Positions 41,401-63,286 of a DNA stretch of 64,000 nucleotides are shown piece by piece. Numbering within the stretch: the stretch's first letter is position 1; each line of letters starts with the position of its first letter. The translations under genes were made by a program, and so were the position numbers. Under the pieces are notes generated by a model, which saw only the letters and a list, made by a program, of their open reading frames with translations, was not told the DNA's origin and ran no database searches. Source of the DNA: an uncultured Phycisphaerales bacterium (lineage in GTDB: Bacteria; Planctomycetota; Phycisphaerae; Tepidisphaerales; Tepidisphaeraceae); contig CAVWVQ010000003.1 in NCBI GenBank assembly GCA_963758525.1, positions 3,040,001 through 3,104,000 of the forward strand, written 5' to 3'.

Positions 41401-44051
41401 CAGGCTTCGTGACAGTCACTCCGACGGGCATGACGAACAATGCGGCGGACAATGCGACCCTGAACACCACGGGCAGCATCGCTTCCTCAGCGGCAGTCAC
41501 GGTCAATTCGGAAGCGAACGATGGCGGCTTCGGCATCGGCACAATCAACTTCAACAGCACAACGCCGACGATTGCCAGCCTGTCGGGCAACGGCAGCGTG
41601 GTGCTTAACAATGCCGGCGGCACGACGCTGACAGTGAGCGGCGGCGGGACTTTCTCCGGCGCGATCAGCCAGGGCAACGGCGGAACCGGTAGCCTGACCA
41701 TATCTGGCGGCACGCTGACCTTGTCCGGCGCAAACGCTTACACGGGCACGACTTCGGTCACGGCCGGCACCCTCAGCCTCACCGGTTCACTGACCAGCAA
41801 TGTCTCGACCAGCAGCACCGGCGTAGTCACGGAAAGCAGCGGCGGAGTCATCGGCGGTGCCAGCGCAACCTTTACGCAAGGCAGCCCCGGCAAAACGTCG
41901 ACTCTCGCGGGCGCCAACAGCTACGGCGGCACGACGACGGTCAGCACGGGTACGTTAGTCCTTTCAGGCAGCAACAGTTCGTCGGGGGCGACGACGGTGT
42001 CCGGGGGAACACTGCAATTGGCCAACACGGCGAGCGATGGCGGCCTGGCCAGCGGCACCCTAAGCCTGAGCGGCGGCACACTCCAGGCCACCGTGGCGGT
42101 TCCCTCCATCACGAATGCGGTCTCCCTGACGGCCAACAGCACGATATCGGGATCTCAAGCCCTGACGCTGGCCGGTGTGCTTACCAACTCGGGCGCCAGT
42201 TCGACCCTCACGGTGAATAATTCGGCCGCCACCGCGATCACCGGCGGCAATGTCTATCTGTCGGAGGCAACCGGCACGGGCCGGACGCTCACGATCAACG
42301 GCTCGGGCGCCGTCACGATTGGCGACGCTATCGCGAATTACAGCGGCGGGGCGGGCACGGCCAGCGCGCTGACCTACAGCGGCAGCGGCACTCTAACGCT
42401 CTCGGGCAACAACAGTTATACGGGCAATACGTCGGTCACCACAGGCATCCTCGTCCTGAGCGGGGCCAACAGCAACGGCTCTTCCGCCACGACTTCGGTA
42501 AGCAATGGCGCGACGCTCCAATTGCAGGCTAACAACAGCAATATCACGTCAAACGCTTCTTCCGCGCTCGGCACCGGTTCAGGCAAGCTGGCCCTGAACG
42601 ATGGATCGACGCTGCAACTGCGTTCCGACACCAGCGTGACCTTTAACGGCACGGACGCCCTCGGCGGCCTCAATGGCAGGACGATCACGATCGATGTGAA
42701 TAATATCACGGCCGGTACCGCCAACGGTGTCAGCAACTTAGGAACCCCCCAAGGCCGGACCCTGAGCCTGGCCACCGCCACAACCGGCCTCGGCACGACC
42801 GGCCAATTCAACATCACTGGCGGCGACGGCTACACCCTGGCCTTCGGCCCGCTTGCCGCTGCCAATACAAGCGGCCAAACCTGGACCTTCAATCCGACCA
42901 GCGCGTCGGCCACCATCGCCAGCTACACCAGTAATGTGTCGGTGGCTTCCAATACACTCGCGCTTGCCGGCACCTCGACGGGCAATGCTGTCCTGGGCGC
43001 GATCACCAATGGCTCGGCAACAGCCATTGCCGTGACCAAATCCGGCGCCAGCACCTGGACGCTCTCTGGTGCAAATACGTATTCCGGCGGGACAACGATT
43101 GCCGGCGGCACGCTCGCTTTGTCCCCGGCTTCGGGCACCAACAACATCGGGTCTTCCAAGTTCATCAACGTCGGCAGCGGAGCCTTCTTCAACGTCACTG
43201 CCGTCAACGGAACCGCGAACAACAGTTTCGCGTTGAACGGCACGCAAACCCAAACCACCAGCCAGATCCTCGGCGGCGTCGGCACTGTGACCGGAGCGGT
43301 TGCGATCGCCAACGGAGCGACGCTTTCCGCCGGCACCAACAGCGGCACGGGAAAGGTGAATGTCGTCAGTTCCCCCGCGAGTTCCACGCTGGTTCCCGCC
43401 ACCGGCAGCACGGATACCATCGGCACGCTGAACACTGGCAACCTGACCTTGGGAGCCGCCACCGGCGCGAGCGGAAATCTGGCTGTTAAGATTTCCGACA
43501 TGCCTTCGTCCGGAACTCCGACCGCGGGCGCCGCTGGCACCAACTATGATACGGTGGCCGCGCAAACGATCACCGTGCCCTCTAATTCGCCAACACCGCC
43601 GGCAAACCCCTTCAACGTGCAACTGCTGGGGTACGGGAAGGTCTCCAGCGTCGTGACGGCAAATGCCGCCTCGGCGAATTTTAATCCGGCTTCCACCTAT
43701 GTCTGGCAGATCGCCTCGTACACCTCCACCAATATTCCCGGAGCCGCCGACGGCACGACCGTCATCCTGACCAGCGGCGGTGGCCAGAGTCCCGTGACGA
43801 CGGGGTCGAACTCGGTCGCGGGTCTGTTCAGCCTCGACACCAGCGGTTTTGCCAGCGCGAACTCAATCCCCGGAGCCCAGCAGGGCGCGTTCTATCTGGA
43901 AGACGTTGGAACCACTGGCACCGCCGGAACATTGGACGTGGTCTACAACGCCACGCCGGAGCCGGGCACGGCGATGCTGCTGCTGGCTGGGGGATTACCG
44001 ATGCTGGTCGCTCGTCGCCGCCGTCGAAAGGCGGTCGCGGACGCAAGTTGA
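38409..44051 (+). CDS. PEP-CTERM surface protein 2 (1880 aa) with autotransporter-associated beta-strand repeats
   Basis: Arg-rich leader similar to protein 1; many LTLSGxNxYTGxTxV repeats; C-terminal ATPEPGTAMLLLAGGLPMLVARRRRR. Confidence 0.93.
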   Translation: MTRNNRALSTPANRKSDSLRTRTQSELRRRRLTCACAAIAAGSAGLSSLIARAASNDAWGTAPSSQNFSGTNWTTGTTTPGANTGSAASGDALYFGNSTITTLNNDDSNYSFSGLIFNAGAAAGFTINGNSFTLTGNVTNSSTNLEAINAPIATIAARTFTMTSGGGNISLGGNISGTGGGLTLAGTGVLALSGSNSFTGVVSIGSTATLQLQANSSNTASGISSVLPTQNMLIAALPSGATIQLRADSSIASNGVVAFDSGATTFGNSGAGLKLTGNLNFDVNQLTTGSVPTTLQFGATSAVWQVGTGTTTFNVTGGAGYSLQIGSLNVGNNQAVVFNPTTANMIVGAIGNTSGTITKNGAGTLTLNGNNSYTGNTVVSASAGILILSGANNNGAIATTTVNNGATLQLQANNGNTSNFTTASTALGTASGKLALNDGSTLQLRSDTSVTFNGTDNLPSLNSKTITIDVNNITAGTTNGVSNLGTPQGRTLSLATATTGLGSTGQFNITGGDGYTLAFGPLAAANGTGQTWTFNPTSASATIASYTSNVSVASNTLALAGTSTGNAVLGAITNGSATAIAVTKSGTSTWTLGGTNTYTGATTVNGGTLNITGSTGSGSAVAVNGGGTLSGTGTVGGAVTVAGGTSSSTYGTISVGQGPLTLSSLTLGGSTNSSNSNFSQLNLATATGNTSAAEIAVTGALTTNNAGATITINPAGIAGGQTYELVSFSGSGTYDGSAFATGSGQSSIDGFTLSTSNPSFGVSDSLTVTAASNGLLELVTTGQTYANLWWYGNLGTAWNANNGSIGNFTQDAAGTTPAQALPSSGTTVNFSATGANNTGPITLGQAFTIAGLNFLAADTNSAAFPAINITDSSNSLTIGTSTGITDANNAGVTLSVQNLIPSVSQTWTNSSGALFTIGNVAGPGTAGTTTLTLTNSSSGGTTISGVIGNGTPSGALALIVKNTGAGVTTLSNTNNTYSGGTTLNGGTLTSAVTGGFGTGFVTVTPTGMTNNAADNATLNTTGSIASSAAVTVNSEANDGGFGIGTINFNSTTPTIASLSGNGSVVLNNAGGTTLTVSGGGTFSGAISQGNGGTGSLTISGGTLTLSGANAYTGTTSVTAGTLSLTGSLTSNVSTSSTGVVTESSGGVIGGASATFTQGSPGKTSTLAGANSYGGTTTVSTGTLVLSGSNSSSGATTVSGGTLQLANTASDGGLASGTLSLSGGTLQATVAVPSITNAVSLTANSTISGSQALTLAGVLTNSGASSTLTVNNSAATAITGGNVYLSEATGTGRTLTINGSGAVTIGDAIANYSGGAGTASALTYSGSGTLTLSGNNSYTGNTSVTTGILVLSGANSNGSSATTSVSNGATLQLQANNSNITSNASSALGTGSGKLALNDGSTLQLRSDTSVTFNGTDALGGLNGRTITIDVNNITAGTANGVSNLGTPQGRTLSLATATTGLGTTGQFNITGGDGYTLAFGPLAAANTSGQTWTFNPTSASATIASYTSNVSVASNTLALAGTSTGNAVLGAITNGSATAIAVTKSGASTWTLSGANTYSGGTTIAGGTLALSPASGTNNIGSSKFINVGSGAFFNVTAVNGTANNSFALNGTQTQTTSQILGGVGTVTGAVAIANGATLSAGTNSGTGKVNVVSSPASSTLVPATGSTDTIGTLNTGNLTLGAATGASGNLAVKISDMPSSGTPTAGAAGTNYDTVAAQTITVPSNSPTPPANPFNVQLLGYGKVSSVVTANAASANFNPASTYVWQIASYTSTNIPGAADGTTVILTSGGGQSPVTTGSNSVAGLFSLDTSGFASANSIPGAQQGAFYLEDVGTTGTAGTLDVVYNATPEPGTAMLLLAGGLPMLVARRRRRKAVADAS
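39699..43045 (+). repeat. Near-identical intragenic direct repeat (39699-40165 vs 42579-43045)
   Basis: Same sequence at an exact offset of 2880 nt, with few substitutions. Confidence 0.92.
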
Positions 44052-48783: not shown

Positions 48784-48860
48784 TTGATTGACATCATCCC
48801 CGGCATCGGCACAATCCGCACTGCACCGGGGCGGTTGCGGAATTAGCGAGGGATGGATTC

Positions 48861-49175
48861 ATGCTACTGACGAAGCACGAAGGGGCGACCTTTCAAAATC
48901 AGACGATCTATATCAGCGGCCAGGCATTTATCCGCTGCAATTTCGTCGCCTGCACGCTGGTACTGCGGGAGACGACGTATCATCTCGAACAATGCACGTT
49001 CGACCGCTGCAACTGGCATGTGAACTGGATGCTCCTCTGGGGAAGCCGCGAGTCGGTGGCCGACATCAAGGCACTCGTGACGCTCATCGAACAGGCTCAG
49101 CAACAACTCGGCCCGGCTCAGGACGGCAGCGCTCCCAGGGCCGAGGGAACTGGGCCTACCCCATTCGCTGGATAA
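48861..49175 (+). CDS. Hypothetical protein (short beta-helix-like CxF repeats)
   Basis: GAGG RBS; typical codon usage; FQNQTIYISGQAFIRCNFVACTL...CTFDRC. Confidence 0.7.
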   Translation: MLLTKHEGATFQNQTIYISGQAFIRCNFVACTLVLRETTYHLEQCTFDRCNWHVNWMLLWGSRESVADIKALVTLIEQAQQQLGPAQDGSAPRAEGTGPTPFAG

Positions 49176-49189
49176 TCCCGCTGCTCCTG

Positions 49190-50805
49190 ATGTTCTGCCC
49201 GTCCGCGCAGGCGCTGGAGCCGGATCAAATTGCGCTGATCGTGAACGACAAGTCGCAGGGGAGCCGGATGCTGGCGGACTTCTACGCGCAGCAGCGGCAG
49301 ATTCCGGCAGGACGCGTTATCACGCTCTCGATTCCGCAGCCGGACGCGTCGAGTCCGTTGGAGGAGATTCCCTTTGATGATTACGAGTCGAGGCTCGCGC
49401 AGCCGGTCCGGGACTTTCTAAACCGCAATGGGCTCAAGGACCGCGTGAAGTGCCTTGTGACGTTCTGGGGAGTGCCGCTGCGTGCTGCCAGGCGGGAGCT
49501 GACGGCCGCGGAGCGTGACGAGCAGCTTGCGATCGGGAACGATTGCAAAGCGCTGCGGCCTCAGATCGAGCAGGAGGTTCGCGCGCTGGAGGCGCTGGCC
49601 CGAGCAGTGAATCCGAAATTTGCGCCGGCGATACCGCCGGCGACCGTCGATGAGGCGCAGGCATTGCTGCGTCGCGCGGACGACGCGCTGGTGGCTGCGG
49701 TGACGGCGCTGGCGGCGATGCCGCCCGGCGCCAACGGGCGGGGCTGTTCGAGCAGCTGACGGGTCTGGCCGCGGAAATCGGGGGCAAGCCCGCTTCAATC
49801 CTGCGGCTCGCGATCCCTCCATTTTCGCAGCTGGCGGCGCAGCCCGTTACCGGTGAACAGCTTGCTGATGCCCGGCATCAACTGGAATTGGCGCGGCAAC
49901 GACTGGCGCCGCTGGACCTTCGCACGCCAGGCGACCGGGCCGCGCAGCGCAACATCACGCGCGACACTCTGGGCCATCTGAATCTGCTGCGCGTGCTGGA
50001 CAACCAGTATCGGCTGCTGCAACCCGAACAAAGCGAGTCCGCCATCGACAGTGAGCTGGCGCTGATCTGGTGGGGGAGTTATCCGCGGTTTCGCTGGCAG
50101 CGCAATCCCCTCTATTGTCATTACGACGGCCCGCAGCCGCCGGGTCCGACGTTGATGGTCATGCGCATCGACGCGCCGACGATTCCGGCAGTACACAATC
50201 TGATCACATCAAGCGTCGCGGTGGAAGCAACGGGTCTGCAGGGAAAAGTGGCGATCGACGCGCGCGGCAAGCTTCCGACGGACGGATATGGAGTGTATGA
50301 CCAGTCGCTCCGCAACCTGGCGGCGCTGCTTCGCCAGCACACGAATCTGGATGTGGTGCTGGACAACCGCGAGGCGCTGTTTCCCCCGCATTCTTTGAAC
50401 GACGTCGCGCTGTATTGCGGCTGGTACAACCTCAGGCACTACGTGCCGTCTTGTCGATTCAGCCGGGGGGCGGTCGGCTTCCATGTTGCCAGCTTCGAAC
50501 TGGTTTCCCTCCACTCACCCGATGAAACCGGCTGGGTTGCAGGGCTGATGAATGATGGCATCACCGCCACGCTCGGGCCGGTCGCGGAGCCGTATCTGGA
50601 ATCGTTTCCCAGGGCCGACGAATTTTTCCCCTTGCTGCTGACGGGAAAGCTGCCGCTGGCGGAGGTCTATTGGCGGACCACCCCAATGGCAAGTTGGATG
50701 CAGGACTGCATCGGCGATCCGCTGTATCGGCCCTATGCGGTCAATCCGCCGCTTGCGACCGATGATTTGCCGGCGAATTTGCGCGGGGCTTTGCAGAAGA
50801 GATAG
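49190..50805 (+). CDS. TIGR03790-like protein, frameshifted near 49740
   Basis: ALEPDQIALIVN, GVPLR, AIDSELAL, MVMRIDAP, LYCGWY, GAVGFHVASFE, GPVAEPYL, IGDPLYRPY. Start approximate. Confidence 0.85.
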
Positions 50806-51418: not shown

Positions 51419-52607
51419 CTACTTCGACGGACGCTCTTTCAGATCAGCCTGCGCTTCCTGAAGCGAGAGGACCGCGAACGTCGTCGCCAGGACGGGCTTG
51501 CTCTCCATCCACTTCTGGGTGCCGTTGAAGCTGCCGTCGTCTTTTTGGACGGCGGCGAGTTTGTCGATCAACTCGATTCGCCAATCGTGCTTATTGCCCT
51601 TCGAGTCGGTGATGATCGGCTCGCCGTAGGCGCGCAGGCGCGGGCGAGCGTGTGATAATAATAGAACAAACCGCTGTCACCAGCGCCGGGTCATTGGCGT
51701 TCATGCCGGGGTTCACGTCGAGCGTCCAGTTGTTGCTCACCCATTTCCAGGCAGCTTTGACGCGGGGATCATCTTTGGTCAGCCCGGCATACATCATGCT
51801 TTTGAGCCCGGCATAGGTCATTGAGCCGTAGCTGCGGAGCAGTTTTCGGCCGTCGGGACCGGTGTACTCGCCGGCCGGGGAGCTTCCGCCGTCGGCGGGG
51901 AAGTAGACGAAGCCGCCGTCGTCGCCGGCCCATTTCTGATCGTTGGTTTCGGAGTTGTTCTGGCAGCGGGTGACAAATTTGAGCGCGGCCTGAAAGGCCG
52001 GATCATCGCTCTTCATGCCCGCGTCCTTCAGAGCGTCGAGGGCGAAGTTCGTGTTGCTGTCGTCGGCGCGGCCCTGGCGGCCGTATCCGAATCCCCCGAA
52101 GTTTGGGTTGCTCGGATCGACTTTTTTGCTCTGCTCCGGCAGGCCTTCGATTTTGTCCGTCCATTGCAGATCGCGGAGATACTTCACCGCCTTGTCGAGG
52201 TGGTCCTTGTATTCTGCCTCTTTTGAAACGGCGATCGCACTGACCGCAATCGCGGTGTTGTAGGTCGCCAGCATATCGGCGGAGATGCTGCCGTCGGGCT
52301 TCTGATAGGAGAGGAGTTTGTCGAAGCCCTTGTCGAGAAACGGATTTTCCGGGTCGTAGTGAGAGTTCTGCATGAACGCCTTGAGGACCAGCGCCGTGAT
52401 CGCGGGCGGGTCAGACGGCTGCTGCCAGCCGAAGTCGGGGTTCTGATGGGCTTTGAGATAGAGAAGGCCCTTTTCGATGGACGCCTCGGCGCGATCGGCG
52501 GGGGGTGAAGGTTGTGTGGTCACATCGTTGTTCGCCAGCGTTGATAAGGCCGTAGCGAGTAAGAGGGCGATCGATGCGGATGTCGCTAGATAACGGGGAC
52601 ACGGCAT
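51419..52607 (-). CDS. Secreted prenyltransferase/squalene-cyclase-repeat protein, frameshifted near 51680
   Basis: QNPDFGW, QKPDGSI, GGFGYG, DGGFVY, SYGSMTYAGLKS; the C-terminus (...KWMESKPVLATTFAVLSL...RPSK*) ends at 51419 in another frame. Confidence 0.85.
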
Positions 52608-52700: not shown

Positions 52701-54639
52701 CTAAAACGGCAACGACTGATCCATCCAATCGTCACTGCGGAGCACCTGTTTTCGATTGAACCGCGCGAATCGCTCGGCCTTGGCCTGTGCCATGGCGATA
52801 AGTCGTCCCGCACCGATGGTGCGCCAGGCCTTTCGCGCGATCGGTGCGTGACGCAGAAACAGGTCGTCTTCGGCGCAGGCAAAGAGCTGGGCGCACCCAG
52901 GATCTCCCTGACGGGCGGCTCTGCCGAAGAGCTGGCGGTCGACGCGGCCCGAGCCGTGGGGTTCGGTGGCGATCACGTGGAGACCGCCCATCTCGGCGAC
53001 GCCTTTGGCGAGCTTGATGTCGGTGCCGCGGCCGGCCATGTTGGTGGCGACGGTGATCATGCCGCGGGTGCCGGCTTCAGAGACGATCGAGGCTTCGCGC
53101 GCGGTCTGGGTGGCGTTGAGCACGCGATGCACTTTGCTTAAATCGGTGAGCCGTTTGCTCACTTCCTCCGACGCCAGCACGCTGCGGGTTCCGACGAGAA
53201 CGGGGACACCCTTCTCGTTCAGTTCGCAGACGCGCTGGATGACGGCCGTCCATTTTTCTTCCATCGTATCGAACATGCGCAGCGGAAGCAGCGTGCGGAT
53301 GCACGGGCGGTTGGTCGGAATGCGCACAACGGGGCGCTGATAGATCTGCCAGAGCTCGCCGGCAGATTCCCATGCGGTGCCGGTCATGCCGCTCATGTCA
53401 GGATACTGGCGGAAGAAGCGCTGGAAGCTGAGACGGGCGAGGTTTTCCTTGTCAGCGGTGACATTGACTCCCTCCTTGACCTCGATCGCCTGGTGCAGCC
53501 CGTGCCGCCAGCTTCGATCGGCCATCACGCGGCCCGTGAACTCGTCGATGATCTGCACCTTCCCGTCTTCGGCGACGAGATAATGCTCGTCGCGGACGAA
53601 ACAATGGCGTCCGCACAGCGCCTGCGTCACCAGCTCTTCGCGCCGGCGCTTGCCTTTCCAGAAGCCGGAGGCGGCCGAGAGTTGTTCCAGGCGTTCCTGT
53701 CCATTGGCGGTCAGATCGACGCTGCGAACCGTGCGGTCGATGGTGAAGTCGCGACCGAATTGAAGCTGCTGGGCCAGCTCGTCGGCGGCGCGGTAGTGCG
53801 TGGCATTGGGCTCGTCATCGGGAGAATTGGAAATGATCAGCGGGGTCACCGCTTCGTCGATGAGAAGGCTGTCCGCTTCGTCGACCAGGGCGCGCGCCAG
53901 GCCGGGAACCATCAGCCGCCCCGCAAAGCTGGAGGCGCCGCCGGCGAGTTGACGCACGGAGGTCTGGGTGCTGGTGCGGAGCGTGCCGAGCTGAAGCTGA
54001 TCGCGGAGGAAATCGGCCACCAGCTCCTTGCTCGTGCAGTAGACCACGTCGCGGCGGTAGTGATCGATGCGCTCATTGGCGGGAAGATCATGGACGATGG
54101 CTCCGGCACGCAATCCGAGCATGCGGTAGACCGGCCCCATCTCGTGAGCGTCGCGTTCCACCAGATAATCGTTGACGGTAATCACGTGCACGGGCCGTCC
54201 GCGCCAGGCGAGCAGCGAAGCGGCGAGCGAAGCGGTGAGCGTCTTGCCTTCCCCGGTTGCCATTTCCGCGACGGCGCCGCCGATCATCGCCAGCGCCCCC
54301 ATGATCTGCACGTGGAAGGGCCGCATTCCCAGCGCCCGCCACGCCGCCTCGGCGCCAGGGCCATGGCGCGATCTTCGGCCTCTCCCTCAAGCCGGCCGCG
54401 CCGCGCCAGCGCCGCGCATCGGCCACCGCGTCGCGAAACCGTTCGGCGCCCAGCTCGCGGATCTGAGGCTCGAGCTGCTCGATCCGATCCGCCTGCGCGC
54501 GAAGGCGCGCCAACATCGGCCGGCGGTTCTTAAACCATCCATGCACCCCGTTGGCGGCGGCGTCGAGTCCCTTGAGTTCCGGCGCTTTTACCCGCCGGGC
54601 GTCAAAGATCGCGTAAAGTTCGTCAGTGGCGGAAGTCAT
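52701..54639 (-). CDS. Short accessory SecA-like DEAD ATPase (~645 codons), frameshifted at 54340-54410
   Basis: MATGEGKT, TVNDYL, VDEADSLLIDEA, GLHQAIEVKE, GMTGTA, TNMAGRGTDI, RVDRQLFGRAARQGDPG; N-terminus MTSATDEL starts at 54639. Confidence 0.9.
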
Positions 54640-54645
54640 TGGGGG

Positions 54646-54902
54646 GAAGGCACGAAGGCACGAAGGCACGAAGGCACGGAGGGAAGAGGGAACGAGAAGC
54701 ACGAAAGGGACGAGAGGCACGAAGGCACGTAGGCACGTAGGCACGGAGGGGAAGATAGGCGGTGAAGGGGGAGGAAATTCATCGAGTTACTCATGGCCTT
54801 CTCTGATTGCTCGTAAGTGCGCGAAAACTTTGACCGAGGAAGGCACGATGCGAAAATCCGGGCCTGACTCTGATTTTCCCTTCGTGCCTCCGTGCCTTCT
54901 TC
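54646..54902. repeat. Intergenic insert bounded by inverted AGGCACGA tandem repeats
   Basis: (aggcacga)n arrays at 54648-54750 and inverted cttcgtgcctccgtgccttc at 54880-54899. Confidence 0.8.
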
Positions 54903-54904
54903 CT

Positions 54905-57096
54905 TTACATCCACGGACTGTTCTTCGTCTGAATCAACTGGAGGAACTTTCGCTTCCATTGCACGAACAACGGCGTGCTGTCGAGAGTGAAACGCACGTA
55001 CACGCGCTGGCCGGGATAGTACTTGCCGCTGGGATTCGAGACGGGGACGTCCACCTCAAACTGCTCGTTCTGCGATTTAGTGGGATCCTTGGGATCCACC
55101 GGCTCGTCTTCGCCGCCGGGCTGGGCGACGGCGGGGCTCGGGAGGTCGCGCGTGGCGGCGCCGATCGGACGCGGCGCGCCGGCGGGAACCGCCGTTCCAA
55201 GATCGCCGGCAAATTGCACCGCCGTCTTGTTCACGTGCCCGATGATCAACTGCGATTCAATCTGCTCCAGCAGCACCTTCACGGTCAGCTCGGTATTGCG
55301 GGCGATCGTGCAGATCTCCTGGCCCTTCTGGAGATAGCGACCTTCATACAGATTGATGTCGGGAGCGATCAGCTCGCCATCGATGGTCGCCCGCACGGTC
55401 AGTTCGTCCCGGCGGCGCTGCATTTCGTCGAGTTGCACCTGCAGCGTGTCAACCACTTCCTGGTCGATCGCCTCTTGAGCCGTGTCCTCGGCGCCGAGGC
55501 GAGCATCTTGATCCGAGCCGCCTGCAACTCGGCCTGCTTCTGCGCGATCTGGCTGTCGAGCTCGGGATCACGGCAGATCAGCAGCAGATCGCCGGGCGTT
55601 TTGTCATGCGGACCGTGAACCCATTGATGATCGTGCGCAATCACCTCCGTGACAAAGCCGCCGCGCCGCGCGTTGAGCTTGTCGTGCGCGGTTGCTTCGG
55701 CGATGCCGACCTGTCCGACGTGCATCGGGAAGCGGATCAGCCCGATGACGATGATCGCGATCGCCGCCACCGCCAGGCAGAACGCCGTCGCGCGGCCGCG
55801 CTTGCGATGCAGTTCCGGGTCGAGCGCAAGATACTTGAAGACTTTGACGACCGGGACCACAAGCCAGGTGATCAATCCGCCGATCGCCATCAGCATTCCC
55901 AGCACAGGGATCTGGTAGGCCACGAGCAGGATGATGAGCACGCCGATGAACGTGCGATAGATGGATGACGAAATCGCGTAGGCAAACAGCCAGAAGCGCT
56001 GCAACGGCGGAGGGAGCGGCTGCTGGAGCTTGATGCGGAACACATGCCGCTTGATCAGGCCCATCGCATATTCGGTGCTCTTCTGGCGGAGATTGGGGAT
56101 CTCCAGGAAATCGGAAAGGATGTAATAGCCGTCGTAACGGAGCAGAGGGTTGGCGTTGAAGATGACCGTCGTGACGCTCGCGACAAGCATCGCGTTGAAC
56201 GCAAGCTGGCGGACGAGATGCGTCTCGTTGGTGTTGCGCCAGACGAACGCGCAGAGGGCGGCGAAGAAGAGCTCGACGATCATGCCCGCCGCGCCGACGA
56301 AGATGCGCTGCCATTTGCTTGGGAAAGACCACGCACTGGACGCGTCAACATAGGGCGTGGGAACGAAGACCAGGAACATAATTCCCAGCTCGTGGCATTC
56401 GCCGCCAAAGCGCCGGCAGGAAAAGGCATGGCCCAGCTCATGGATGAGTTTGATGAAGACGAAGACGCTCCAAAGCCACAGCAGGTTGATCGTATTCCCC
56501 TTGATATCGACGGCGTGGCGCGCAGAGTCCTGCAGCCCGTGGGGGCCATTCCACTGGGGGGCGATCACCACCAGCGCCGAGATGATCACCGCCAGCCAGA
56601 CCACCACCCCGAGCTTGCTGAACATGACGCGGGCCAGCGGCATCCACCGGCGGAGAAACCGGTCCGGATCCCACAGCGGAATGCGCGGGAAGAGCACGTT
56701 CATCAGCCGGCCCTGCATCTTGCGCTTGGTGAGCTGCTTGTGCCGGCGGAGCAGAACCGTGGCGTCGGGCGTAACGTCGGCCTCGATCAGATTGGCCGAG
56801 TAAAGATGCGACAGAATCTGGATCACTTCCGGCTGCGTAGGCGCATCGTCGGCAAGCTGTCCGCCGCACAATTCCCACGCTTCTTCGACGGTTCGCGACC
56901 CGTCGAGCAGTCCGACGAATCGGTAAGCCGGGTCGCTGAGCCGGTGAAACTGATTGCCCGCCGGGTCGCGTACGACGTACCAGCGGTCGCCGCGATAGAA
57001 CTGACGCGAGATATGGGCGCTGACGCGCAGCCGCACGCGCAGCTCCGCAACGCGGTACCAGGACTCGGAAAAAGTGGGCCGTAGTTGGAGAGTCAT
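54905..57096 (-). CDS. PqqD-like N-domain / M50 site-2 metalloprotease / HlyD-like fusion (~730 codons), frameshifted near 55490
   Basis: FVGLLDGSRTVEE (PqqD/RRE-like), HELGH, FNANPLLRYDGYY, multiple TMs; coiled coil and VRATIDG...PGQRVYVRF in the 54905..55456 frame. Confidence 0.88.
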
Positions 57097-57114
57097 CTGG
57101 GGTTCAGTGTGATT

Positions 57115-57630
57115 GAGGGTTCAGGGTGTCAGGGTTCAGGGTGTCAGGGTTCAGGTAGGGAGGACGGGTTAAGATCCAGGGTTGGGCGCAGGGAAGCGAC
57201 GGTCGCTGGGGGCGAGTTGTTGTTCCAAAGTTCTTTCCAGTCCGTTAAGCATTTTTACGCACTCGGTATAGCGCTCGCGGTAGTCGTTATACGTTTCTTC
57301 TGTCAGGTAGCCTTTCAGCATCGCTATGTACAAGTGATGAACCGCTTCCAGCGATTCGCCCCTTGCACGGTTTGCGCCTTCAATTTTATTCCGCACATGC
57401 CGATCGCTGTGCTTCTCGGCCAGTTGCGCCGGAGCGCTGTTCGAACAGCGCCTTATCTGGGACACCAGCTCAAACCGTTCTTCCCTTGGCCATTTCGCGG
57501 ACAGCTGACAAACCTCCAAGTGCAACACGCACAACTTCTGATAAATGCTCAGATCCTCAATCCGCTTAAATCCCACCACAACCATCCCCTCCGAAATCCT
57601 GAACCCGGACCCCTGACACCCTGAACCCTC
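57115..57630. mobile_element. Repeat-bounded cassette carrying a four-helix-bundle gene (candidate intervening element)
   Basis: gagggttcagggtgtcagggttcagggtgtcagggttcagg (57115-57155) is inverted at 57598-57630; the outer 20 nt match perfectly. Confidence 0.65.
57169..57585 (-). CDS. Four-helix-bundle protein (23S rRNA IVS protein / TIGR02436-like)
   Basis: GGAGG RBS; FKRIEDLSIYQK, WPREERFELVSQIRRCSNSAPAQLAE, ARGESLEA, KGYL, KMLNGL. Confidence 0.93.
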   Translation of the reverse strand: MVVVGFKRIEDLSIYQKLCVLHLEVCQLSAKWPREERFELVSQIRRCSNSAPAQLAEKHSDRHVRNKIEGANRARGESLEAVHHLYIAMLKGYLTEETYNDYRERYTECVKMLNGLERTLEQQLAPSDRRFPAPNPGS

Positions 57631-57632
57631 TC

Positions 57633-59581
57633 TCACATCCACAACTTGAGCTTCAGGAAGTCGATCAGCCGGTGCGTCCAGATCCAGGCGACGCTGCGCT
57701 TGGCGACGTCGACGCGCGCTTCGCCTTTCATGCCGGGGCGCAGGTGGGGACGGCTTTGCCGGTGAGGGTGACGTAGACGCGGAAATTGTTGGTCCCTTCT
57801 TTCGGATCGGGAATGGGGATGATGCGCTCGACGACAAAATCGAACGAGTCGCCCGGCTGGGCGTTGGTGGCGAGGGTTCCGTGCTGGCCGATGTGAATGT
57901 TCTGGATGTCGCGGTCATCGACGGTCAGTTCGCCGCGCAGGTCGTGATCGCTGCCGATTTCGAAGAGCACGTCGCCGGTCTTGACCGGGGAATCGAGTTT
58001 ATCTTCCAGGTCACCCTTGAGGATCTCCGCGTCGACCGGGGCGACGATCGTGCCGCGGGCGATTTGGGCGCTGAGAAAATCCACTTCGTTTTTAGCTTCT
58101 TCACCTTCCGAGATGGAAACCTGTTCCTCGGCGGTCTTTTCCTCGGCGCGGTAGCGGGCGGCTTCCTTGGTCTTGGTGTTCACGCGGGCCTGCGCCTCGG
58201 CCAATTTCAGCTTCATGTCGGTGGTGTCGAGCATGGCCAGGGTCTGGCCCGCCTTGATCATGTCACCTTGACGGAGCGGCTTGCCATCCGGGCCCTTGCC
58301 CACTTCGCTGATAAAGCCTTCGAAGGGCGCGGGAATCTGGCAATGCGCCCGCGAGGCAAACTCGAACGAGGCGCTGACGTGGTACATCGGCCTGATGACG
58401 AAGATGCCGACGAGGATCAGCGCGACGCCGATGGCGATCAGCTTGCCGAGCATATGCTGCGGGCCAACGGCACGCTTGGCGAGTTCGCGGATGCTGATCC
58501 CGGCTTTGGTGATCAGCCAGCGATCGTTCTGAAATCGGTCGTACAGTTGTGGAGCCAGCAGATCGATGGCGATGCTCAGCGCCTGCCCGACGTTAGGCCC
58601 CAGTTTTTCCTGCGCGGGGAATTCGGCGGTGATGACGCCGATGATCTCATCGCGCCGCCGCAGCGGCAGCGAGAGGACAGCGGCGCCGCCCTGCTCGCGG
58701 GAAAACGCGGCGGCTTCGCGCGTGACGTTCTGGGTGTTTTGCCCGGCGGGATCGAACTGAACGATTTCGTCCTGATCCGCGCATTCCTCCATCACCTTCT
58801 CGAGCGAGACGATCAGTTCCTGTTTCTTGTCGAATTCCTCAGTGTGCGAGATCGCCTTGACGCGGACGTTTCGCCCCTTCACCCAGCCCATGGTCACGCG
58901 CGACGCGTGCGCCCGGCCGGCCAGCTCGTTGCACAGATTCATCGCCGCCGACTCAAACCCTTCGGCCGTCGCGACGGAGGTGGAGAGCTGCAGCACGTGC
59001 TGATGGCTCTCGGCAATCAACTTGCTCTGCTCGGCAAGGCGGCGCAGGGTGAACAACTCGAAATATCCGGCCACGAGCTTCATCGAGTTGAGGCGCTGGC
59101 GGGCGCGTTCCAGATCGAGGCAGCGGGCGATGACCGCGGAGACGGCCACCACCTCGTTGTCCGCGCGCAGGAGCGTGACGAGGCAGAACTGTGTTTCGTG
59201 AGTGTCGCCGGTCATTCCCAGTTCGATTGCGCCGTCCTTCATCTGCTGCACGCAGGGAACGACCAATTCCTGGAACGCCGACACGGCCGCGGTGCGAACC
59301 TGGGCGCTGCTGTTGTCATGGCGGAGATGCGCGAGAAGGCGGAGGGAGACCGATTCGTCCGCGCGTTCGATGAGAAAGCCGACGGCTTCGGTTCCCGCAA
59401 CGGTCGTCGCCTGCGTGCTGATCAGCTCAGTGACGAATGCGGGGAGATCCCGGGCGTCGATCAGGCGCTGCGCCAGCTCCGAGCGGTGCCCGCTGGGTTG
59501 CGCGGTTCCCTGCGCCTGTTCGGCTTCAGAACTTTGCGATGATTCGACTATCCCTTCAGCCACGAATTGCTCCTTGCTCAC
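57633..59581 (-). CDS. GAF-like domain + HlyD/RND periplasmic adaptor (~650 codons), frameshifted near 57755
   Basis: GAF-like LSLPLRRRDEIIGVITAE, TM, APFEGFI..GQTLAMLD, IVAPVDA, VKTGDVLFEI; C-terminus LRPGMKGEARVDV...FLKLKLWM* ends at 57633. Confidence 0.88.
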
Positions 59582-59656
59582 TTGCGCTTGCGTGCCGCAT
59601 GCAGATCAGATCAGTTGCGGAGCTGCCCTGCGGGGCAGCCGCTAAACTTTGCCGGT

Positions 59657-60523
59657 TCAGTGCTCCGCGGAGTTGACAGATGCGACGGCGTCCGACGTCT
59701 TCACCTGCACCTGCAATCCCGATTGCCGGCCGGCGGCGTTTGCGAGTTGCAGGCGGACTTTTTGGCGATCGCTCCGGGCATCAGCCTCGGGCGCCACGAA
59801 AATGACCTGCGCCTCGAGCCACTTGTCTTCGCTGGCGTAACGCACGTCCATCATCTGCTGCTTGTGAATGTTTTTCACGACGCCTGTCGGCAGCTCTACT
59901 TCGACATACAGCGGATCGTTCTGGATGATGGTCATGATCGGCTTGGAGACATCCGAAGAGGCAGCTTCGCCGACATGCGTGTTGATCTTCGATACCACGC
60001 CCGCCACCGGACTGCTCAACTGTTTCAGTTTGATCTTCGCCTGCTCCTGCTCGACCTCCGCCATGGCCTTCTGCTTTTCCTGCTCGGCAAGCTGGATGCG
60101 AATGGCCGCGATCACCTCATTGACCTTGGCTTCTTCCAGTTCGCTCTCGCCGACGACGTTATCCTTCCGCATTTCCTGTTTGCGCTTGAGTTCAACCACC
60201 TTGGCGTCGTGATCTGCCTTGGCGGCGATGATCTGCAGATCGGAGTTGGCCTCGACTTGGGCCACTTTCACGGCGGCCTCCTCCAAGACGCAATCCTGCA
60301 CCGCGATCAGTTGGCCGGCCGTTACCACGTCGCCTTCCTTGACCGGCTCTTCGCTCACCACGCCGGGGCCGTTAAACGACACGTCCCGCGACTCGGAAGG
60401 CTTGGTGAAACCGGGATACAGCGTTTCATCGCCTTGCGCGACAACTGTCCCGGCACAAAGCAGCACCAGCCCGGCCCCGCAGCGGCCCCAAGCACCAAAT
60501 CCAGCAAATGTCTTCAAAGCCAT
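59657..60523 (-). CDS. HlyD/RND-type periplasmic adaptor (membrane fusion protein)
   Basis: Signal peptide; VKEGDVVTAGQLI, coiled coil, LSSPVAGVV, DPLYVEV, FVAPEADARS. Confidence 0.9.
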   Translation of the reverse strand: MALKTFAGFGAWGRCGAGLVLLCAGTVVAQGDETLYPGFTKPSESRDVSFNGPGVVSEEPVKEGDVVTAGQLIAVQDCVLEEAAVKVAQVEANSDLQIIAAKADHDAKVVELKRKQEMRKDNVVGESELEEAKVNEVIAAIRIQLAEQEKQKAMAEVEQEQAKIKLKQLSSPVAGVVSKINTHVGEAASSDVSKPIMTIIQNDPLYVEVELPTGVVKNIHKQQMMDVRYASEDKWLEAQVIFVAPEADARSDRQKVRLQLANAAGRQSGLQVQVKTSDAVASVNSAEH

Positions 60524-60765
60524 GAAATCTCCGACGCCAGTTCGCGTATGATTCATCTGAACAGGACCGAGGCCGGGTAAAAGCCCCTAAGCCCCACCTG
60601 CTGTCGCCACACCGAAGCTCAGTTCACTACTTCTGGATCGACATCGCGAAGAAAGCGTCTTGAGGGCGACTGGTAATTCCGCGCATTAATCGCAGAGCCA
60701 GTTTATCAGGCAACTTACCCTCGCGCCAATCCCATGCAACCGTACGCCCGCCCGAGCGGTTCGGT

Positions 60766-61143
60766 TCAACCATATCCGAGCTGATCCAAATCGCCCTCAT
60801 CCAGCCCGAAGTGATGGCCGATTTCGTGCAGCACGGTTTTGCGGACGCGGTCCACCAGATCAGCCTCGTTTGCGCTCGCCAACTCTATGTCATTTTGGAA
60901 GATATAGATCACAGCGGGCATCGGCGGCGCCTCCACGGAGCGACGGGTCAGCGGTGAACCTTGGTACAGTCCCAGCAACAGCCTGCCGTCTTCCAGCCCC
61001 ACACTGCGCCGCTGGGTTGCCGTCGGGCGGTCCCGAATTTCGACCGGCACCTCTTCCAGAGCGGCGGCAAACTCCCCAGGCACCTCCGATAATACCTGCT
61101 CGACGAATGCCGAGAATTGCGCTTTGCCGACGTGGTATGCCAT
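60766..61143 (-). CDS. Zincin-like metallopeptidase (DUF1025 type)
   Basis: LLGLYQG, TVLHEIGHHFGLDE. Confidence 0.9.
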   Translation of the reverse strand: MAYHVGKAQFSAFVEQVLSEVPGEFAAALEEVPVEIRDRPTATQRRSVGLEDGRLLLGLYQGSPLTRRSVEAPPMPAVIYIFQNDIELASANEADLVDRVRKTVLHEIGHHFGLDEGDLDQLGYG

Positions 61144-61236
61144 CGCTAGTATCTCTTCATTACGCCGATTGCGGGTGTTTCGCGTGCCGCCAACCGACGA
61201 CGCGCGGCTATCGGATGGTTCATTCCTCTGGCTGAG

Positions 61237-62253
61237 GTGTTCATGCGCGCTTCGATGCTGTCGTTTTTGATCATATGCGCCGCCGGATGCAACGGCACCA
61301 GCTTTCTCATTACGCCCGTTCCCACCACCTATAAGCTCGACGAAGTGCAGGCTGAGCCGGGAATTGGATTCTTCGGCGGAAAAGTGGCGATTATTGAAGT
61401 TGAGGGCCTGCTTTCTGACAGCAGGAGCAGCGGACTGCTCTCACTGTCGCAGGGCGAGAATACGCTGAGCCTTTTCAAGGAAGAGCTGGAGCACGCCCAG
61501 CGCGATTCGTCGGTGAAAGCGGTGGTATTGCGGGTGAATTCCCCGGGTGGAACGGTCACCAGCGCGGATGCGATGTACGATCTGGTCAATCGGTTTCGCA
61601 GAAAGACGGGCAAGCCGGTAGTGGCGTCCATTCAGGAAGTGGGCGCCAGCGGCGCCTACTACGTATCCTGCGCCGCCGATAAGATTGTCGCGCAGCCGAC
61701 GAGCGTGGTGGGGAGCATCGGCGTGATTTTCGAATCGCTGGAGTTTGAAGGAACGCTCGCGAAACTGGGAATCCAGCCGGTGACCGTGAAAAGCGGCACG
61801 CTGAAGGATATGGGTTCCCCGTTCAAAGCGGTCGAGCCTGTTGAACGCGAGGTGATGCAGTCGATGATCGAGGAGTATTTCGCCCGGTTCATCGGCGTGG
61901 TCCGCGGCAATCGCAAAATCGACGAAGCGCCGAATCCTGATTTGTCGACCTATCGAAAGGCTCCATATGCCGGCATTTTCAGCGGCCGTGTTTTCAGCGG
62001 CGCGCGCGGGGCCGAGATGGGGCTTGTCGATCAGACCGGCTTGCTGGAAGATGCGATCGATCTTGCCCGCACGATGGCGCACGCGCCGAATGCGTCCGTC
62101 ATACAATATAAGAGGCCGTACGGCTATTCTGGTTCGATCTATGCGAGCAGCGAGGTGAGACCGCCGGAGACGGGCGTCACGCGGCTGCAACTGCCGGGCG
62201 CGGACAGCGTGCTTCCCGGCGGTTTCTATTATCTGTGGCGCGCCGGACTGTGA
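61237..62253 (+). CDS. sppA: Signal peptide peptidase SppA (S49), probable lipoprotein
   Basis: LRVNSPGG, GASGAYY, GSIGVI, KSGTLKD, GRVFSG, GLVDQTG; lipobox AAGC. Confidence 0.9.
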   Translation: MFMRASMLSFLIICAAGCNGTSFLITPVPTTYKLDEVQAEPGIGFFGGKVAIIEVEGLLSDSRSSGLLSLSQGENTLSLFKEELEHAQRDSSVKAVVLRVNSPGGTVTSADAMYDLVNRFRRKTGKPVVASIQEVGASGAYYVSCAADKIVAQPTSVVGSIGVIFESLEFEGTLAKLGIQPVTVKSGTLKDMGSPFKAVEPVEREVMQSMIEEYFARFIGVVRGNRKIDEAPNPDLSTYRKAPYAGIFSGRVFSGARGAEMGLVDQTGLLEDAIDLARTMAHAPNASVIQYKRPYGYSGSIYASSEVRPPETGVTRLQLPGADSVLPGGFYYLWRAGL

Positions 62254-62272
62254 CGCCCGCCCGAAGGACTGC

Positions 62273-63286
62273 ATGATTTCGCTCACGTGCACCAATTGCC
62301 GCACGGTTCTGGAGATTGACGACGCCTTTGCCGGCGGCGTCTGTCGGTGCCAGCACTGCGGAACAATTCAGACGGTGCCGTCGCATCTCAAATCGAAGGC
62401 GCGCACGACGGCTTCCAATCAATCGCTGCCCGGCTCTAAAGCACTCTATCAGCACCGGACGGGGACCGACGCGGGCACTGGCCTGGAAGACCTTGCGGGC
62501 GCCGTAGCCAGCAGCGGACTTCATTCGAGCCGCCTGCGGTCGGGCACGGCGACAACCGCCGCGCCCAGGCGCGCCGGCGCCGCAAGCAAGAAGAAGAGCC
62601 CCCTGCTGCTGATCCTCATTGGAGCGGTTGTTCTCGCGACCGTCGCGGGCGGGATCATCATCTACGTCTTCATGCAGGGCTCCTCCAGCCAGCCCGCTCC
62701 CCAGCCGCAGGCGGTGAATCCGACTCCCGCCAACCCGGCTCCCGACACGCCGGCAACTCCATCGGGGCCGTCGTTCTGCGGCGTTCCGCTCATCGACACC
62801 AATGTCGTGTACATCCTCGATCGGGGGACTTCCATTGAGCAGTTCTTCGATCCGCTCAAGGCCGCCCTCTATCGCTCATTGGATCTGCTGGGCCCGACAG
62901 GGCAGTTCGCGGTGATCCTCAGCGACAATGGATCGTCGCCGGTCGTGTATCCGAAGACGGGCCTGGCCAACGCAACACCAGGCGAGGTTGAAAAGGCTCG
63001 CAGTGTTCTGGATGACGCGATCGCCAGCGGGGCCAGCAAACTCGCCCCGGCGATCAAAGAAGCCGTCGCCAGAAAACCCGCCGTCATCATCGTCGTCACC
63101 GCCAAGTTTATCCTTGATGAAGGTGACGCCGAATCGCTGATTCAAAATTCCCAGCGCGGCATCCGCATCCATACCTTCATCCTCGGCAGCAGCACCGCCA
63201 CCGACGCTCTCGAGCAGGCCGCCTCCAGAAGCGGGGGGATTTTTCGGCGGGTCAGTGAGAGCGATTTGCGGAGGTTTGGGTCTTAA
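62273..63286 (+). CDS. Zinc-ribbon + TM + vWA-like domain protein
   Basis: CTNC...CQHC N-terminus, TM, Pro-rich linker, VVYILDRGTS, IHTFILG, ASRSGGIFRRV. Confidence 0.8.
   Translation: MISLTCTNCRTVLEIDDAFAGGVCRCQHCGTIQTVPSHLKSKARTTASNQSLPGSKALYQHRTGTDAGTGLEDLAGAVASSGLHSSRLRSGTATTAAPRRAGAASKKKSPLLLILIGAVVLATVAGGIIIYVFMQGSSSQPAPQPQAVNPTPANPAPDTPATPSGPSFCGVPLIDTNVVYILDRGTSIEQFFDPLKAALYRSLDLLGPTGQFAVILSDNGSSPVVYPKTGLANATPGEVEKARSVLDDAIASGASKLAPAIKEAVARKPAVIIVVTAKFILDEGDAESLIQNSQRGIRIHTFILGSSTATDALEQAASRSGGIFRRVSESDLRRFGS

Follow-up and report, generated by a model that had tools for sequence, protein, structure and literature searches.

The gene set closest to the one considered here was described in silico in 2015 by Kamneva, Poudel and Ward, who proposed a short SecA as a co-opted ATPase and an M50 protein as the pore (PMC4452313). 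In the accessible text of that paper, the secondary SecA_DEAD locus comprises a SecA without the wing/scaffold domain, M50-HlyD, GAF-HlyD and HlyD proteins, an optional outer-membrane efflux protein (OEP) and no ABC transporter. We analysed a four-gene module of this type in a 64,000-nucleotide stretch of DNA (the window; C3:3040001-3104000, C3 being contig CAVWVQ010000003.1) from the genome of an uncultured Phycisphaerales soil bacterium of the Tepidisphaeraceae (G000; 6.47 Mb, 6 contigs). The locus has the module traits set out in the available parts of PMC4452313, namely a SecA_DEAD protein without most of SecA_SW, a canonical SecA elsewhere, M50/HlyD, GAF/HlyD and HlyD proteins and no ABC gene, and it belongs to the same phyla. 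The gene set and the basic hypothesis were therefore already described in 2015, contrary to an earlier note on this DNA that knew of no mechanistic description. The 2015 text, as far as it is accessible, names no cargo, RRE or leader, whereas here one module accompanies about 80 scattered candidate leader cargo, and the evidence points to proteins with an ExLExRxLLS leader, encoded across the genome, as what it handles. A literature search that reached few subscription journals found no publication joining the LEPR-XLL/PF07595 leader to the module or testing the module; the link between leader and machine was not found in print.

A planctomycete extracellular motif was reportedly put forward by Studholme in 2004 as a proposed export signal. 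PF07595 and LEPR-XLL (NF012209) have the same N-terminal ExLExRxLL[AS] consensus on extracellular-type proteins as the leaders described here; the papers found assign no export machinery to them, and the present leaders are divergent. Type I secretion (HlyB-HlyD-TolC) resembles the module in its HlyD-type, inner-membrane-anchored adaptors, in the TolC linkage seen at some module loci and in cargo of adhesin/RTX type. Leader cleavage tied to export, a feature of peptidase-containing ABC transporters, would be a further likeness. The module differs in having neither an ABC ATPase nor a C39 domain; it brings three unlike adaptors, and its leader is N-terminal, its protease a zinc site-2 enzyme and its motor of the SecA type. 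SecA2 proteins retain the scaffold and the two-helix finger and use SecY or SecY2. A DEAD motor with PPXD is common to the short SecA, accessory SecA2 (also a second SecA for special cargo), the SecA-N68 fragment (PDB 5k9t) and the wing-less SecA domains that the accessible text of a preprint gives for Omnitrophota giant proteins (bioRxiv 10.1101/2023.11.21.568195); the short SecA differs from SecA2 in stopping early in the scaffold helix and in being tied to adaptors and a protease. The nearest characterised analogue of the M50 fusion is the daptide RRE-site-2 protease MpaP/DapP (NF041824), which, in the available text of its description, removes a leader with the motif ELExMEAP (bioRxiv 10.1101/2023.03.08.531785). 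In both proteins an N-terminal RRE precedes an intramembrane site-2 protease that bears HExxH and NPDG-type motifs, and both leaders have an acidic-Leu-Glu motif; the module fusion adds transmembrane helices and a C-terminal adaptor, and its candidate substrates reach 3,600 amino acids rather than being short modified peptides. Against NF041824 the fusion scored 155.7 bits (cut-off, 300).

Anatomy of the short SecA, the M50 fusion and the adaptors

The four module genes are co-oriented on the minus strand in the order small adaptor, GAF-adaptor, RRE/M50/adaptor fusion and short SecA (Table 1), and each is single-copy in the genome (tblastn, E<=1e-5). The earlier note had read the run in this way and as lacking an ABC or RND pump, and both observations were borne out: no ABC, RND or MFS pump was present among the window open reading frames (ORFs) scanned from 47.9 to 64 kb. 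No secY was found among the flanking ORFs scanned, and the locus itself held no TolC or giant gene.

The short SecA stops 52 residues past the EDDL motif, where the scaffold helix has run for about 25-30 residues. The earlier note had placed the stop about 45 residues past EDDL, a distance corrected here; its conclusion that the protein is too short for the wing, two-helix finger and zinc tail stood, as Pfam returned no SecA_SW match and all three elements are absent. The C terminus fell 69-88 residues past RQGDxG in 68 of 70 measurable short SecAs, the other two being frameshifted, and the finger, the wing and most of the scaffold were gone from all intact ones. A predicted model of an intact ortholog (predicted local distance difference test (pLDDT) 90) consisted of NBD1, PPXD, NBD2 and one C-terminal helix. 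Walker A, DExD, motif VI, the C-loop Arg (R373, equivalent to B. subtilis R322) and the PP-loop Arg/Trp (R378 and W380) were invariant in 70/70 short SecAs, and both clamp strands were conserved. Mapped on B. subtilis SecA, the clamp elements 219-224 and 351-356, the PP loop 326-331 and the C-loop R322, as named in the accessible part of a cryo-EM study (PMC9926265), were all retained; that part of the study concludes that movement of the clamp is likely sufficient to drive the chain, with the two-helix finger acting only to guide it. With the clamp kept and the finger lost, the short SecA thus keeps the polypeptide-moving parts and loses the part that enters SecY, and we infer that it works without SecY. 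The short-SecA model superposed best on SecY-engaged SecA (template modelling (TM) score 0.81-0.82 for 5eul/6itc versus 0.68-0.71 for free forms), a comparison subject to the bias of structure predictors on multi-state proteins.

A separate full-length SecA, which the earlier note had thought should be confirmed, is encoded elsewhere (L051, C3:175589-179575; 1328 amino acids, with about 515 more residues beyond the point where the short SecA ends). This canonical protein has a greatly expanded wing region, as the available text of PMC4452313 gives for planctomycetes. In an unrooted tree that included 24 of the 70 aligned short SecAs and 10 newly fetched ones, with the same-genus ortholog in place of the frameshifted gene, a 100/100 branch parted 34 short from 11 long SecAs; the short SecA of this genome fell among those of other phyla and was separated from its own canonical counterpart. 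Most of the divergence between the module and the same-genus ortholog lay at third codon positions (0.43-0.53; second positions, 0.08-0.26). Because of this divergence and the separate branch, the short SecA is, judged from sequence, not a decayed copy of the housekeeping gene, an origin that had been raised as an objection.

The M50 fusion carries the motifs HELGH and NPLLRYDG, and its residues H220, E221, H224, N315, N317, P318 and D323, among them the zinc ligands and catalytic Glu, were invariant in 84/84 M50 fusions, which argues for proteolysis over a passive pore. In a model of the intact same-genus ortholog (pLDDT 92), residues 19-106 matched lasso-peptide leader-binding RREs (Z 9.1-9.2), residues 143-399 matched RseP and SpoIVFB (Z 9.0-9.7) and residues 458-703 matched MexA (Z 16.3); Foldseek with the full model returned only adaptors among the matches listed. 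The Z values for the predicted RRE and M50 folds are middling yet consistent with Pfam, which detected PqqD in 9/14 fusions and M50 in 14/14. Altogether the module holds three adaptor domains. The small adaptor has an N-terminal signal-like segment and no strong transmembrane segment by hydropathy, and was present in 36 of the 39 loci with at least 5 kb of flank on both sides. In the GAF-adaptor, the single transmembrane segment lies at 378-396, and the GAF assignment comes from Pfam (E=0.006) and Atlas (score 0.95-0.96); a BLAST comparison of one half of the GAF region with the other found no similarity, and a second GAF domain lacks support.

Table 1. Genes of the module and the gene lying within it (window coordinates)
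Feature	Position	Strand	Domains and state
Small periplasmic adaptor (HlyD/MFP type)	59657..60556	-	HlyD_D23 E=7.6e-11, HlyD_3 E=1.2e-10 (Pfam); intact
GAF-adaptor	57633..59581	-	cytoplasmic GAF-type region, one transmembrane segment, periplasmic adaptor; frameshifted
Four-helix-bundle gene (TIGR02436 / 23S rRNA IVP family)	57169..57585	-	between GAF-adaptor and M50 genes
RRE (PqqD fold), M50/site-2 zinc protease, extra transmembrane helices and periplasmic adaptor	54905..57096	-	Pfam M50, PqqD, HlyD_3; frameshifted
Short SecA, ~645 amino acids	52701..54639	-	NBD1, PPXD, NBD2, first third of scaffold helix; frameshifted

Leader proteins and co-occurrence with the module

The leader is a basic, non-hydrophobic ExLExRxLLS segment near the N terminus of large extracellular-type proteins, which carry it in place of an ordinary signal peptide. 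The genome contains 67 matches to the back-translated leader DNA pattern, whereas 20 permuted patterns gave 0-5. Of 86 protein-motif matches, 84 fall in the first 170 codons of open frames, although a few of these, which are very short, could be chance matches. Upstream of the motif, the median charge content is 7 Lys+Arg versus 1 Asp+Glu; a hydrophobic stretch occurs in 1/83 leaders, and conservation ends right after LLS. The leader is a divergent form of the known PF07595/LEPR-XLL type: 0/16 leaders passed the PF07595 cut-off (4/16 were sub-threshold) and 2/16 passed that of NF012209. The mature parts are rich in Gly, Ala, Ser and Thr and poor in Cys, Lys and Arg, with a transmembrane-like stretch in 1/73. 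Among 19 cargo sampled by hand, with a weighting toward long ones, 16 had Pfam matches, mostly of extracellular type (Ig-like, CBM, RTX, SdrD, PA14, GH16 and ice-binding); RTX repeats were found in three and were lacking in the other 16. The largest leader protein (L172, G000:C3:4590181-4601067; ~3,600 amino acids) contains RHS repeats and PPC, CBM and Ig-like domains. About ten leader genes with near-identical leaders and Ig-like tails lie at G000:C3:4957000-5008000, which suggests a recent tandem expansion. PEP-CTERM was found in 0/84 leader proteins although the genome has about 27 PEP-CTERM-like C termini, so that two separate sorting tags coexist.

The closest named M50 homologs, by the titles of their loci, are from Tepidisphaeraceae/Phycisphaerales. 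The fusion was present in 24/24 same-family genomes (23/23 without G004, which is flagged unpublished) and in 34 of the 41 genomes searched. Same-family genomes, G004 included, had 9-120 leader pattern matches versus 0-3 for the control, the loose pattern having a background of 1-3 per genome that cannot classify low-count genomes. Similar clusters had been predicted in other bacteria, and the genes indeed co-occur across many phyla. Locus counts were made on the best 80 of 569 loci from species genomes, those nearest to the query, which favours the SecA-linked branch. In this set, the short SecA stood directly behind M50 in 62 of the 66 loci whose flanks were long enough and the GAF-adaptor ahead of it in 67 of 68 informative loci, so the arrangement is not due to chance. 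TolC was found in 16/80 loci and RND in 1/80; an ABC ATPase, which as a constant partner would have counted against the earlier note's reading, was found in 3/80 and never inside the co-oriented run. Giant genes flank many module loci, and leader genes flank 7/80 as well as two stand-alone short SecA genes (L192 and L194). Pairwise identities of SecA and M50 were correlated (rho 0.81), a result that we set aside as evidence because it reflects shared ancestry.

In 301 Planctomycetota, 93 had the M50 fusion. A leader density of at least 1.6/Mb was reached by 26/93 M50-positive and 0/208 M50-negative genomes (reversed-pattern control, 2 and 7; leader counts transcribed by hand). Under a stricter leader pattern, 300 Verrucomicrobiota (centre genome left out) gave 9/68 positive versus 1/232 negative genomes. 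All of the 40 short SecAs identified by score, frame length, adjacency or sequence sat in M50-positive genomes; the short-SecA profile at E<=1e-215 also picked up canonical SecAs and missed distant short ones. One candidate short SecA outside the M50-positive genomes (G072) was rejected, its sequence being that of a canonical SecA. Distant RRE-M50-adaptor fusions without a short SecA occurred in G169, G183, G196, G073, G127, G158 and G292, of which three (family f46) also had no leader matches, which suggests a second branch with another signal or motor; a similar distant fusion group was present in 44/301 Verrucomicrobiota. These counts indicate that a leader implies the module and that a short SecA implies the module, while distant M50 fusions occur without either.

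Published proteomics of a cultured planctomycete bear on similar proteins. In the accessible parts of PMC8567305, Tuwongella immobilis has 52 leader proteins, of which 20 were detected, 8 of them only in the sodium dodecyl sulfate (SDS) fraction. Table S3 of that paper, in the part available, has a second SecA of 75 kDa, whose only domains are SecA_DEAD and PP_bind and which lacks the SW domain, in the SDS fraction alone, with the canonical SecA in all fractions, and an 86 kDa M50 protein with seven transmembrane segments and an 80 kDa HlyD protein in membrane fractions only; size and Pfam labels make these proteins putative counterparts of the module.

Setting of the locus and the frameshifts

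Three of the four module genes are split by frameshifts, near 57740 in the GAF-adaptor (whose true C terminus sits in another frame), near 55490 in the M50 fusion and near 54340-54420 in SecA, as judged by comparison with orthologs. The module genes are intact in most relatives, and the GAF-adaptor is intact at 632-683 amino acids in those compared. As a control, 23/101 orthologs of a same-genus genome were broken in this assembly (0.198 breaks/kb), including proteins that we take to be EF-G and PNPase; at this rate the module should contain 1.4 breaks, and three or more would arise with a probability of 0.16. SecA breaks fall at other places in two other few-contig assemblies (G002 and G018). 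Given the control rate and the predominance of third-position divergence, we read the module frameshifts as probable assembly errors. A TIGR03790 gene (48788-50805) and a prenyltransferase/squalene-cyclase-repeat gene (51591-52607) also look frameshifted, which fits the assembly error rate. No RNA sequencing run was listed as containing this genome, and its shares in DNA runs were small (0.11 and 0.09).

The four-helix-bundle gene, which also has a weak Avd match, is flanked by 35-nt inverted repeats (57108-57142 and 57603-57637) whose arms are 89% complementary and built of short tandem units. The gap between the GAF-adaptor and M50 genes is 26-290 nt in relatives (6/6 measured), and the gene is likely a passenger insertion outside the machine. 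An operon transcript could fold it out as a hairpin loop (window 57108-57637). A scan for upstream promoters and terminators gave no signal exceeding shuffles.

Upstream of the module, at window 60766-63286, lie a co-oriented zincin-like gene and a divergent SppA/VWA pair, which hold the same place in 5 of the first 6 same-family loci listed; SppA, a signal-peptide peptidase, could degrade released leaders. Elsewhere in the window, 38409-44051 encodes a protein of 1880 amino acids that ends in a PEP-CTERM-like tail and contains passenger-associated transport repeats, and a 104-amino-acid ORF with no Pfam or NCBIfam match (48861-49175) overlaps the start of the longer TIGR03790 frame.

Proposed export route and its alternatives

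We consider it probable that the module handles leader proteins. Gene anatomy and co-occurrence were observed, and from them we infer each physical step of the following route. The four genes would supply the components that a dedicated exporter of leader proteins, one without an ABC transporter, has in the inner membrane and periplasm. In it, the leader would be bound by the cytoplasmic RRE domain and cleaved close to the conserved LLS by the zinc site of M50, just as SpoIVFB and the daptide RRE-site-2 protease cleave their own leaders. The short SecA would dock on the M50/GAF-adaptor complex rather than on SecY, hold the unfolded chain in the clamp formed by PPXD and NBD, and drive it forward N terminus first. 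The three unlike adaptor domains may make one mixed ring coupling to a TolC encoded elsewhere, and the GAF region probably regulates the machine or aids recruitment. The full one-step, SecA-powered version of export has slightly better than even odds in our estimate. We put at roughly 0.45 the probability of the broader proposal, namely that the module is a distinct class of secretion system in which an RRE reads the leader, a site-2 protease cuts it and a SecY-independent SecA clamp drives the chain via an M50/adaptor-helix pore, the mixed ring and TolC, one copy serving in Tepidisphaeraceae as a main route for tens to more than 100 surface proteins per genome and the system elsewhere exporting the largest known bacterial proteins.

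For the outer channel, the genome offers about nine OEP genes, of which an orphan (C3:4178446-4180173) with no pump within 9 kb is by far the nearest to module-linked TolCs (E=1e-77 versus 3e-35). Several findings weigh against the proposal, beginning with this gene, whose subfamily occurs in 228/301 genomes; the best TolC candidate is therefore not module-specific, and a module-type TolC profile was rejected as a dedicated marker. In the profiling that the earlier note had recommended, the four genes co-occurred, giant genes lay beside many loci and TolC gave no dedicated marker. No leader excess over the control was present in 34/93 M50-positive Planctomycetota, within families the M50-positive genomes were higher in only 11/17, and 17/25 Verrucomicrobiota with close M50 fusions had no strict leader. 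Kinship among genomes inflates all of the leader/module contrasts, and p-values overstate them. When 10 M50-positive genomes were re-searched at a loose threshold, three had a short SecA and seven had canonical SecA only, so not every RRE-M50-adaptor fusion needs a short SecA; those without it include complete single-contig genomes such as G073 (6 leader matches versus 1 in the control). No solved M50 protein acting as a protein channel was found.

An unlikely alternative, although the strongest of those weighed, is a two-step route in which the short SecA, as a SecA2-like adaptor or motor, feeds leader proteins through SecYEG; M50 would trim the leader, and the cargo would then pass from the periplasm to the adaptor/TolC ring. 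The available text of a preprint on Chlorobium chlorochromatii (bioRxiv 10.64898/2026.03.19.712371) describes two LEPRxLL giants that are made, reach the periplasm and pass to the partner cell, and such periplasmic pools fit the two-step route equally well, a further point against the one-step proposal. The existence of M50 fusions without a short SecA and the best fit of the short-SecA model to SecY-engaged SecA, with the predictor bias mentioned above, are also on its side. The intact short SecAs, by contrast, all lack the finger, the wing and most of the scaffold, and secA lies directly behind the M50 gene in 62/66 loci. SecY signal sequences need a hydrophobic core, which the leader lacks (1/83 with a hydrophobic stretch). 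Export by an ABC transporter in trans, as in type I secretion, with the module holding, unfolding or releasing cargo by cutting an N-terminal retention tag, is less probable again. The Chlorobium authors, in the accessible text, state that the giants have no known transport signals, assign them to type I secretion system parts and note one secA that was acquired recently (bioRxiv 10.64898/2026.03.19.712371); RTX repeats in 3/19 cargo, four fused TMD-NBD ABC genes in the genome and two TolC genes that adjoin ABC plus adaptor genes would suit such a route. It has to contend with the scarcity of ABC ATPases at module loci (3/80, none in the run), a C39-like motif in 0/4 fused ABCs, the 16/19 cargo without RTX repeats and a module that supplies its own three adaptors.

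A role in signalling or envelope quality control, by regulated intramembrane proteolysis through the GAF and adaptor domains and unrelated to bulk leader-protein export, seems marginally more improbable still. Signalling is the usual setting for M50 proteases and GAF domains, a sensory role is suggested for the GAF protein in the available text of PMC4452313, and many module-positive genomes show no leader excess; yet leader-rich genomes were never without the M50 fusion (0/208), TolC in 16/80 loci and giant genes beside many loci look out of place, and a clamp-intact SecA has no obvious role there. That the cluster is decaying and non-functional in this organism, as three frameshifted genes out of four might imply, is very improbable in view of the broken control orthologs, the mostly third-position divergence and the SecA breaks elsewhere in G002 and G018.

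The export proposal for the module links two published loose ends, an export signal without known machinery (2004) and a SecA/HlyD/M50 set without known cargo (2015). If it is true, SecA would move proteins without SecY or the two-helix finger, which would offer a natural test of the contested power-stroke models for SecA; secretion would also be gated by a site-2 protease. Cultured carriers include Tuwongella and Methylobacterium extorquens AM1 (in the accessible text of PMC4452313) and, from the locus search, Dyella, Marinobacterium and Labrenzia. One module serving about 80 candidate cargo in one genome would give a clean secretome read-out and makes a strong case for a direct test.

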